DNA of 64,000 bases from Candidatus Hodarchaeota archaeon (GTDB taxonomy: Archaea; Asgardarchaeota; Heimdallarchaeia; Hodarchaeales; Hodarchaeaceae), in the NCBI GenBank assembly GCA_016840035.1, contig JAEOTC010000038.1, positions 78,760 through 142,759 on the forward strand, read 5' to 3'. The translations under genes and the position numbers were made by a program. The notes beneath the pieces were generated by a model, which was not told the origin of the DNA, made no database searches, and saw only the letters and a list, made by a program, of their open reading frames with translations. Positions 3,176 to 57,098 of this stretch are shown here, piece after piece. Numbering within the stretch: position 1 is the stretch's first letter; every line of letters starts with the position of its first letter.

Positions 3176-5266
3176 GTGTCTTACTTGGAAGATTTAACTG
3201 ATAAGAAATTTGTTGTGTGTCCCGCGTGGCCTTACGTGAATGCTGTTCCTCATCTCGGAACAGTGTTACATTTACTTAGTGCGGATATATATGTTCGTTA
3301 CTTAAGGCTTCGTGGAGCAAATGTAATCTCAGCTACTGGTTCAGACTGTCATGGAACACCAATAGAGGTGGCTGCGCTAGCCACTGGAATATCACCTGAA
3401 AAATTGGTAGAACAACATCATGCTCAAATTTTAGACTTACTGCGGAAATGGAATATTGATCTAAATTATTCAAAAACAGAGAGCTCGCACCATTATTCTT
3501 GGGTACAGGATTTCTATCATCGATGTTTCGAAAATGGATTTATTTTCAGTAAAGAAATTGAACAATTGTACTGTGAGACAGACAAGCGTTTCCTACCCGA
3601 CAGATTCGTTGAAGGAACCTGTCCTCACTGTGAAACCCCAGGAGCTCGTGGAGATCAATGTGATTCCCCTTCTTGTGGAAAACCATTAAGTCCTGTTGAG
3701 TTAATAAATCCTGTGTGTAAAATTTGTGGAAAACCACCTATTACTAAAGTTACAACTCAATGGTATTATGATTTCAGTGCTTTCCAAGAAGAATTGACCG
3801 ATTTTATTAACAAGAATGAAAATTTCCCTGATAATGCACGTAAATTCTCAAATCATATCCTTCAGGAAGGATTACAAGCCCGAACTTTAACACGTGATCT
3901 CGCATGGGGAATACCTGCTGGGCCCGCAATACCTGGAGCAGAAGGAAAATCGATCTATGTATGGTTGGAAGCAGTTTTAGGATATGTTTCAGCATCAGCA
4001 GAATTAGGATTACGTTTATACAAAGACCCTGATTTTTGGAAACAATTTTGGCTTGAACAAGATACTCGGACTATTTTCTTTATTGGAAAAGACAATATTT
4101 TCTTTCATACACTTTTATTTCCAGCTCTTTTATTGGGAACTAAAGATACTTATGGTAAGCCATTTGTTCTTCCATACAATGTTAGTACAACCGAATTTCT
4201 TATTTTTGAGGAGGACAAATTTAGTAAATCCAGAGGTATAGGTGTCTGGATTGATGAAGCTGCCAAGCTCCTTCCTACTGATTATTGGAGGTATTATTTA
4301 GCAGCGACACGTCCAGAAATTAAAGATACGTCATTTACTTGGACTGAATTTGAGCAACGTGTAAACAATGATCTTAATGACGTATTAGGGAACTATATTC
4401 ATCGTGTCTTTGTACTAATTCACAAGTACTTTGAAGGAAAAATCCCAGAATGCCACAGGTTAGATACTACCGATAGAGAATTTGTTTCAGCCATAAATAA
4501 TGTTCCTGAGGCTGTAGCAGACCATTTTGACAATTTTGAATTTAAAAAAGCAGTCGCTGCAATCATTGATTTCGCTCGTGTCGCCAATGGATATCTAAGT
4601 ACAAAAGAACCCTGGAAATTAATAAAATCTGATCCTACAACAGTTGAAACTACATTATACCTTTGTGCTCAATCAGTTGCGACTTTAAGTGTTATTTTAT
4701 CACCTATTATTCCCGACACTGTGAAAAAAATTTGGGAAATCCTGAAACAGGATGGAAGTGTCCACGACCAGCAATTAGAGGATGCTGGAAAGCTAAGATT
4801 AGATCCAGGATCAGTCATTTTAGAATCAAAACCCCTTTTTGCTAAGGTTGAAAGCGAAGAATTACAGAAGGAACTCAACGCTATTCATAAAACGGAGTCT
4901 AAAAAACCAAAAAAGGTGAAAAAATTGCCAGATAGAGAAACAATTCCATTCAAAGATTTTGAGAGACTTGATATCCGAATAGGTACAATCATTAAAGCAG
5001 AAAAAGTTCCTAAAGCCAAGAATCTATTGAAACTAAGAGTAGATCTAGGCGAAGACATCGGAGAAAGACAGCTAGTCGCTGGACTTGCATCTTTTCGTGA
5101 CCCTAAAGACTTAATTAACCAAAGAATCACGGTTATAGTTAATCTGGAACCTACAACAATCAGAGGGGTCAGATCTGAAGGAATGCTCCTCGCTGCAGTC
5201 GAAGGTAAGGAATTAGGATTAATAGTCCCTGATAAAAATATCGCTAATGGCACTAGAGTTAGCTAA
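3176..5266 (+). CDS. metG: Methionyl-tRNA synthetase
   Basis: PYVNAVPHLG (HIGH), zinc knuckle, KFSKS, C-terminal tRNA-binding OB domain. Confidence 0.97.
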   Translation: MSYLEDLTDKKFVVCPAWPYVNAVPHLGTVLHLLSADIYVRYLRLRGANVISATGSDCHGTPIEVAALATGISPEKLVEQHHAQILDLLRKWNIDLNYSKTESSHHYSWVQDFYHRCFENGFIFSKEIEQLYCETDKRFLPDRFVEGTCPHCETPGARGDQCDSPSCGKPLSPVELINPVCKICGKPPITKVTTQWYYDFSAFQEELTDFINKNENFPDNARKFSNHILQEGLQARTLTRDLAWGIPAGPAIPGAEGKSIYVWLEAVLGYVSASAELGLRLYKDPDFWKQFWLEQDTRTIFFIGKDNIFFHTLLFPALLLGTKDTYGKPFVLPYNVSTTEFLIFEEDKFSKSRGIGVWIDEAAKLLPTDYWRYYLAATRPEIKDTSFTWTEFEQRVNNDLNDVLGNYIHRVFVLIHKYFEGKIPECHRLDTTDREFVSAINNVPEAVADHFDNFEFKKAVAAIIDFARVANGYLSTKEPWKLIKSDPTTVETTLYLCAQSVATLSVILSPIIPDTVKKIWEILKQDGSVHDQQLEDAGKLRLDPGSVILESKPLFAKVESEELQKELNAIHKTESKKPKKVKKLPDRETIPFKDFERLDIRIGTIIKAEKVPKAKNLLKLRVDLGEDIGERQLVAGLASFRDPKDLINQRITVIVNLEPTTIRGVRSEGMLLAAVEGKELGLIVPDKNIANGTRVS

Positions 5267-27574: not shown

Positions 27575-27646
27575 ATGAGCGATTCAGAGTAACTATAATC
27601 TATCATAGCAAAGCTCATACTTGTCAGGTTTCATCATTACGCTCAT
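27575..27646 (-). ncRNA. Box C/D methylation-guide sRNA (dual guide, LSU H69/H71)
   Basis: Terminal stem ATGAGCG/CGCTCAT; C ATGATGA, 12-nt guide, D' ATGA, C' ATGATAG, 12-nt guide, D CTGA; guides complementary to conserved LSU rRNA. Confidence 0.88.
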
Positions 27647-27663: not shown

Positions 27664-28080
27664 TTAATCCTCAATATCAGTGTCGTCTTCTTTGAGTTCC
27701 TCTGAAGATCTTATTAATTCAGCCATGGAATATTGTTGATCAAATTTTTTCCAGATTGAGGAGACTATAACTTCGTCTAAGCCTTTTATCTTCTTTGTGA
27801 CAACTTTTTTAGCTGCATCTCGCTTCTCTGGTAATTCTGTGAAACCCCACATAGCTGCTGGAACAGCTTCTGGGTTTTTTTCAATTATATATACTGTACC
27901 CTCCTGTTGTTGAAAAGAAAAAAACTGTGGTTGAATAAGTGGACAATCAGATAGCTTATGCAGTCCAGTAACTGTGAATAGGTGATTACATCTTGTTTTC
28001 TCAGGGGATGTAGCAGATGACTTAAATGCGCAATGACCTTTGTCAAGGTATCTCCATGCTGTAATTAATTCAGTTTTCAT
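27664..28080 (-). CDS. Mak16 / ribosomal L28e-family protein
   Basis: W.....GHCAF...C....TVTGL....CPL...G.VY...K.PE..PA..W..L aligns by eye with the yeast Mak16 N-terminus. Confidence 0.75.
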   Translation of the reverse strand: MKTELITAWRYLDKGHCAFKSSATSPEKTRCNHLFTVTGLHKLSDCPLIQPQFFSFQQQEGTVYIIEKNPEAVPAAMWGFTELPEKRDAAKKVVTKKIKGLDEVIVSSIWKKFDQQYSMAELIRSSEELKEDDTDIED

Positions 28081-28136: not shown

Positions 28137-28209
28137 AGCCGCTGGTGGGACTTGAACCCACGGCCAACAGATTACAAGTCTGTCGCTCTACCAACTAAGC
28201 CACAGCGGC
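28137..28209 (-). tRNA. tRNA-Thr(TGT)
   Basis: GCCGCTG/CAGCGGC acceptor, ACAGA-CTTGTAA-TCTGT arm, GGTTCAAGTCC. Confidence 0.95.
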
Positions 28210-35493: not shown

Positions 35494-35635
35494 TAGGGAC
35501 GGCGGGATTTGAACCCACGACCTCTTGGTATTCTGATAACCAACATCGGTTGGTTATTCCCAAACCAAGAATCATCTAGTCGTTATTTCCGTGTTATTCC
35601 AGAGAATAACTAAAACCATGCTAGACTACGTCCCT
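35494..35635 (-). tRNA. tRNA-Pro(TGG) with two introns
   Basis: AGGGACG/CGTCCCT acceptor; 29-nt BHB intron at 37/38 (35530-35558); second ~36-39-nt intron in the D-loop (about 35575-35613). Confidence 0.88.
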
Positions 35636-57004: not shown

Positions 57005-57098
57005 TTAGATCAGAAAGTGCAACTGTCATCATAAGCAATAGGACTTAGAAATTACTAATCCTATTGGCCTCCGTAGACCGTCTTTTTCATCATCAGGG
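57005..57098 (-). ncRNA. Box C/D guide sRNA (peptidyl-transferase-centre targets) with internal hairpin
   Basis: C ATGATGA (57093-57087), guide AAAAGACGGTCTA, D' CGGA, hairpin, C' ATGATGA, guide CAGTTGCACTTT, D CTGA (57013-57010); ends approximate. Confidence 0.85.

Follow-up and report, generated by a model that had tools for sequence, protein, structure and literature searches.

Directly behind a Mak16/eL28-like gene of a Hodarchaeales genome lies a 72-nt stretch that raises two questions: does it encode a guide RNA for rRNA methylation and, if so, does the coincidence of its predicted target nucleotides with two methylated nucleotides of yeast rRNA point to a special relationship between Asgard archaea and eukaryotes? 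The locus was examined within a window of 64,000 nucleotides, which is the whole stretch of DNA that was analysed, and was compared with related genomes and with published archaeal and eukaryotic guide RNAs.

Architecture, conservation and surroundings of the sRNA

The sRNA, terminal stem included, occupies positions 27575–27646 on the minus strand, as do all of its parts. It begins with the 5' half of the terminal stem, ATGAGCG (27640–27646), which is complementary to the 3' half, CGCUCAU (27575–27581); the stem was supported by a per-sequence duplex test and by the MFE fold. Enclosed by it are box C (AUGAUGA, 27631–27637), the D' guide AACCUGACAAGU (DNA AACCTGACAAGT, 27619–27630), a variant box D' (AUGA, 27615–27618), the linker GCTTTGCT with a 2-bp mini-stem, GC...GC (27607–27614), a degenerate box C' (AUGAUAG, 27600–27606), the D guide AUUAUAGUUACU (DNA ATTATAGTTACT, 27588–27599) and box D (CUGA, 27584–27587). 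Gaps of 2 nt separate the 5' stem from box C (TA) and box D from the 3' stem (AT), and both guide spacers are exactly 12 nt long (class expectation ~12 nt). The complete C-D'-C'-D layout that had been claimed in an earlier note, made from the letters of this stretch, was found here, and the architecture is that of a textbook archaeal dual-guide box C/D sRNA, in agreement with the note's proposal of such an RNA in an Asgard archaeon.

In the predicted fold, a terminal stem of 7–8 bp places boxes C and D side by side, as a kink-turn would require. Boxes D' (AUGA) and C' (AUGAUAG) deviate from consensus and retain the UGA/GA cores able to form a K-loop. The stem is a plain one, lengthened by AACAG/CUGUU across a 2x2 internal loop. 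A bulge-helix-bulge frame for the sRNA was rejected, being absent from the fold. The z-score of the whole-RNA fold was a modest -1.25, as expected of a protein-scaffolded RNA.

The layout is rare. A strict regular expression (RTGATGA, 12 nt, NTGA, 2–14 nt, NTGANNN, 12 nt, CTGA) matched the genome of 4,302,992 bp once, at the sRNA locus, and gave no match in three shuffled genomes. An Rfam scan at the gathering threshold assigned no sRNA family to the locus. At a relaxed E-value the best hit reached 19.7 bits against a cut-off of 45, with nothing near threshold, and generic CD-box snoRNA families, hit on the minus strand, made up 15 of the 16 weak matches. The genome was also scanned with a relaxed, target-driven, snoscan-like search, which returned no excess over reversed-rRNA decoys (36 vs 54; 7 vs 18), so that it is unusable for counting the other sRNAs of the genome; a still looser scan of this kind returned noise only.

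BLAST and a covariance model, R1, recovered one copy of the sRNA in each genome of the genus (22/22). In alignment A1, which comprises 20 diverse homologous sequences, the UGAUGA core of box C, box D and the GA cores of D' and C' are invariant. Box D' is AUGA or UUGA in most homologues, and box C' combines an invariant AUGA core with a variable 3' half. Positions 1–11 of the 12-nt D guide are invariant, as are positions 2–10 of the D' guide, whose positions 11–12 are nearly so (G at position 11 in one homologue). The terminal stem, linker and flanks vary. The D'-C' mini-stem is paired in 97.5% of cells, with one double change. A complementary terminal stem of its own is present in every one of the 20 homologues (mean z -3.6 against shuffles). 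When the stem was counted column by column in a gap-free alignment, 66% was paired and 28 of 500 shuffles scored as high, a weak signal due to stems that are out of register between homologues.

In the copies from genomes G001 and G017 (L021 and L025), box D' (GUGA, not AUGA) lies 2 nt closer to the guide, which is itself unchanged. With such a shift, the site predicted in helix 71 would either lie 2 nt away or no longer be methylated.

The upstream neighbour, which is not part of the RNA, is a 138-aa ORF on the same strand (27664–28080). It matches Pfam Ribosomal_L28e with an E-value of 5.5e-7 and 30.6 bits, below the cut-off of 33.2, and of the PDB entries Mak16 N-terminal domains match it best (E 1.3e-5). 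Between its stop codon and the start of the sRNA are 17 nt, and the placement directly behind Mak16 described in the earlier note holds, with the neighbour identified as Mak16/eL28-like. In all 22 genomes of the genus the sRNA follows the Mak16-like gene and precedes a THUMP gene. The linkage to Mak16 is restricted to the genus: a KaiC-like ORF precedes the sRNA in G019, and unrelated genes surround it in family f4. Most archaeal C/D sRNA genes overlap an ORF or lie at most 25 nt from one and are processed from longer transcripts (PMC7994747), which makes the adjacency to Mak16 ordinary. TATA-like runs near the sRNA were found only inside the last codons of the upstream gene. The Mak16-like gene is a probable co-transcription partner, and the 17-nt gap suggests that the sRNA is probably cut from a read-through transcript of that gene.

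The Mak16-like gene is itself preceded, at a distance of 56 nt, by a tRNA-Thr(UGU) gene of the same strand (28137–28209, minus). The resulting run of tRNA, Mak16-like gene, C/D sRNA and THUMP/ThiI-like gene may form one transcription unit. Two other features of the window were recorded on the minus strand. The first, at 57005–57098, has two ATGATGA boxes, a long D'-C' hairpin, the D' guide AAAAGACGGTCT and, before CTGA, the D guide CAGTTGCACTTT, of which a 9-mer is complementary to the 5' half of the same-genus 23S rRNA; it is probably another box C/D sRNA. The second, a 142-nt Rfam tRNA match at 35494–35635 (39 bits, uncalled by ARAGORN), is probably a tRNA that contains an intron.

Predicted targets in 23S rRNA

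The 23S and 16S rRNA genes were searched for in the MAG that carries the sRNA (87% complete, 293 contigs), and neither was found. The targets were therefore read on 23S copies of the same genus. Three such copies from other species (L008, L029 and L030), identical over helices 69–71, were used as reference; their target region reads AGTAACTATAAC, then CCTTGTCAGGTA 32 nt on. A further copy, L001 (G001:C57:307-3242), is full-length and was the top 23S hit. It was set aside as a target reference: its helices 69–71 are unlike those of the three other same-genus copies, one of which lies on contig C38 of the same genome, G001. The L001 contig is probably a contaminant of the G001 bin.

On the reference copies, the D guide (positions 1–11) pairs with AGUAACUAUAA in the loop of helix 69 through an unbroken run of 11 Watson-Crick pairs, and the D' guide (positions 2–11) with CUUGUCAGGU at the base of helix 71 through one of 10; at least 9 bp are expected of guides of this class. 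The N+5 pair is of the Watson-Crick type at both predicted sites. Among 3000 shuffles of each guide, a pairing run of this length through N+5 was matched by 2 for the D guide (11 bp) and by 16 for the D' guide (10 bp). With the 11 parsed tRNAs as targets, the best runs were 6 and 4, none comparable to those on rRNA.

The sites were numbered by alignment to E. coli K-12 rrlH, which was verified on U1911, U1915, U1917, C1962, G2251 and U2552. The N+5 nucleotides correspond to A1913 for the D guide and G1945 for the D' guide. Both pairings, and both E. coli positions derived by the +5 rule, had been put forward in the earlier note and are borne out by the same-genus 23S copies and the rrlH alignment; its second target, placed about 30 nt downstream, does lie downstream, at a distance of exactly 32 nt. 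We take the A1913 equivalent to be part of bridge B2a and a contact of the A site, and the G1945 equivalent, at the base of H71, to belong to bridge B3.

Yeast A2256 is the counterpart of E. coli A1913 (bioRxiv 10.1101/755652), and the yeast guides snR63 and snR75 direct Am2256 and Gm2288, respectively (PMC5199042; PMC8307265). G2288 is located at the base of H71 (PMC4174444). A2256 and G2288 are 32 nt apart, the spacing also found in E. coli and Hodarchaeales 23S rRNA and in the site pairs of human, Arabidopsis and Ostreococcus (PMC11542601). This constant spacing, together with the location of G2288 at the foot of helix 71, indicates that G1945 corresponds to yeast G2288. The claimed match to yeast Am2256 and snR63 is stated directly in the literature, and so is the assignment of snR75 to Gm2288; the equivalence of G1945 and G2288 comes by way of the spacing and the helix position.

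The two guides change together with their 23S targets in family f4. The D' guide is AACCTGACAAG in genus g1, where the 23S rRNA reads CTTGTCAGGT; it is AATCTGACAAG in G028, with CTTGTCAGAT, and AATCCGACAAG in G030, with CTTGTCGGAT. In each of these three cases the opposite strand of helix 71 is altered as well. The D guide likewise reads TTATAGTTAC with AACTATAA in g1 and TCATAGTTAC with AACTATGA in f4. This covariation between guide and target is the strongest computational support for the predicted targets, and its three-way form, involving the guide and both the 5' and the 3' strand of the rRNA helix, is unusually direct support of this kind. As a separate observation, the 23S gene of G028 (L004) carries an insert of ~870 nt at ~3536–4415, immediately behind the sequence of the helix 69 loop and ahead of CTTAAGGTAGC. 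An rRNA intron at the helix 69/70 junction, adjoining the target of the D guide, is the probable explanation.

We consider it likely that the sRNA is a canonical archaeal box C/D guide RNA for the A1913 and G1945 equivalents, with 2'-O-methylation as the predicted outcome. Fibrillarin and Nop5 genes are adjacent on contig C112 of the MAG that carries the sRNA (G000), which also encodes an L7Ae-family protein. According to the mechanism known for the class, the terminal stem would join box C to box D in a kink-turn, and D' and C' would form an internal K-loop. L7Ae would bind both the kink-turn and the K-loop, and a Nop5 dimer would bridge them and position two copies of fibrillarin. The D guide would then pair with the helix 69 loop of the nascent 23S rRNA and the D' guide with the base of helix 71, 32 nt downstream. 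Counting upstream from each D-type box, fibrillarin would 2'-O-methylate the nucleotide paired with the fifth guide base, and the sites predicted in this way fall at the positions of yeast Am2256 and Gm2288. Two nearby segments of domain IV would be held together in the process, which may also aid folding.

Distribution in Asgard archaea and counterparts elsewhere

Covariance model R1 also detected the sRNA in the order's two other genera and in 9 of the 12 genomes of family f4, which belongs to the same class. A strict dual-guide pattern was matched in 35 of 400 Asgard genomes, with one hit in the backwards control; families f3 and f5 gave no match to this pattern. Convincing copies were present in three further families of other Asgard classes (G084, G128 and G147). 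The pattern is blind to lineages with a different helix 69 or helix 71 sequence, so the patchiness within Asgard archaea is partly technical.

The copies in f4, G084, G128 and G147 have the same two guides in the same order, fitted to their own 23S rRNA, and differ from the Hodarchaeales sRNA in form: their length is ~100 nt, D' and C' are separated by a real hairpin, box C (AUGAAGA) and box D (CCGA or CGGA) are variant, and the gene neighbourhood is different. Among the f4 copies (L065–L071, L110 and L111), box C is AUGAAGA and box D is CCGA, CGGA or CUGA. With these variants, A-C or A-U takes the place of the U-U pair usual in the kink-turn, which looks like compensated drift of the protein-binding boxes.

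Outside the Asgard archaea, the closest counterpart was found in published data for Ignicoccus hospitalis and Sulfolobus acidocaldarius (Dennis et al. 2015, PMC4644070, Additional files 1 and 3). As we read its published sequence, I. hospitalis sR91 matches the Hodarchaeales sRNA in both guides, in their order and in their registers. Its D' guide, ...CUCGGCAAG(C) followed by CCGA, when set against CUUGCCGGGU, puts N+5 at the G of CUUG, the G1945 equivalent. Its D guide, AUCAGAGUUACG followed by CUGA, when set against the helix 69 loop, puts N+5 at the A1913 equivalent; GUUACG stands before CUGA, in the register of the Hodarchaeales sRNA. In the published alignment (PMC4644070), I91 is used as a label in two blocks, those of helix 69 and helix 71. 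Unlike the Hodarchaeales sRNA, sR91 comes from a hyperthermophilic host of the Thermoproteota; its D' spacer measures 13 nt, and one of its pairs is G-U. Beyond boxes and guides the two sequences share no similarity, and common descent can therefore not be shown. S. acidocaldarius sR113, again in our own reading, has the D guide CUCAGAGUUACU followed by CUGA, with an identical GUUAC-N-CUGA register and N+5 at the A1913 equivalent, but its D' guide is unrelated to helix 71. Targets of D and D' that lie at most 100 nt from each other have a precedent in Pyrobaculum, where they are found for 45% of sRNAs (Lui et al. 2018, PMC6009581).

In yeast, the two nucleotides predicted here as targets are modified under the guidance of snR63 and snR75, with an enzymatic mechanism identical to that predicted for the Hodarchaeales sRNA. 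The yeast RNAs differ from it in being two separate, longer snoRNAs without demonstrable homology to it, and the eukaryotic snoRNA covariance models for both sites gave no family match to it (sub-threshold generic CD-box hits only).

Alternative readings and biological meaning

The earlier note had read the locus as a single Asgard RNA covering sites that are served by two yeast snoRNAs. The sites are indeed the same, but the arrangement is not peculiar to Asgard archaea, Ignicoccus sR91 being alike. Together, I. hospitalis sR91 and S. acidocaldarius sR113 imply that the dual design and both sites exist outside Asgard archaea. On balance we favour the explanation that the coincidence with yeast reflects a pan-archaeal hotspot of methylation, whether through ancient inheritance or through repeated convergence, and no specific legacy from Asgard archaea to eukaryotes. 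Besides the two sites in sR91 and the A1913 register in sR113, this agrees with the description of helices 68, 69 and 71 as methylation hotspots, with predicted sites dense around A1912 (Dennis et al. 2015, PMC4644070), and with the patchy occurrence of the strict pattern among Asgard genomes, including the lack of matches in f3 and f5. Against a pan-archaeal hotspot stand the partly technical nature of that patchiness and P. abyssi, in which neither site has a listed equivalent (PMC11542601).

The dual guide could instead be an ancient archaeal gene that was present in the Asgard ancestor, its guides having been inherited and split into the snoRNA lineages for Am2256 and Gm2288. If this were true, both pan-eukaryotic methylations and their guides would predate eukaryogenesis by descent, not by convergence. 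We regard such a history as unlikely. A special Asgard-eukaryote relationship is not established by the present data, which the pan-archaeal hotspot explains at least as well.

A different kind of alternative concerns function. The sRNA might act mainly as a folding chaperone on helices 69 and 71, with one of its guides, likeliest D', directing little or no methylation. The degenerate D' and C' boxes are compatible with this, as is the displaced D' box of G001 and G017, next to which the guide is nevertheless conserved, and conserved pairing without methylation has been proposed for some Pyrobaculum families (PMC6009581). Yet both sites have Watson-Crick pairing at N+5, the K-loop retains its GA cores and both spacers are exactly 12 nt, and we find a predominantly chaperoning role improbable. 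Finally, the position 17 nt behind a gene and the modest fold z-score would suit a chance box-like motif or a 3'-UTR/terminator hairpin of the Mak16-like gene without guide function, but this is highly improbable for a strict motif that occurs nowhere else in the genome and never in shuffles, whose two guides match adjacent conserved rRNA sites and covary with them, whose conservation is focused on boxes and guides rather than the stem, and which recurs in other gene contexts in other families. The sRNA is thus very probably a functional guide, a further representative of a known class.

In yeast, human, plants and a green alga, both predicted target nucleotides carry methylation (PMC11542601), and Gm2288 is important for 60S stability and fitness in yeast (PMC4174444). 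Coincidences of this type should be read with caution as eukaryote-specific heritage, because Thermoproteota share the design. Our literature search found no paper describing Asgard C/D sRNAs with A1913 and G1945 targets. With the sRNA described here, the Hodarchaeales gain a well-supported and previously unannotated C/D guide RNA, and at least this group of Asgard archaea is predicted to mark two nucleotides of intersubunit bridges.
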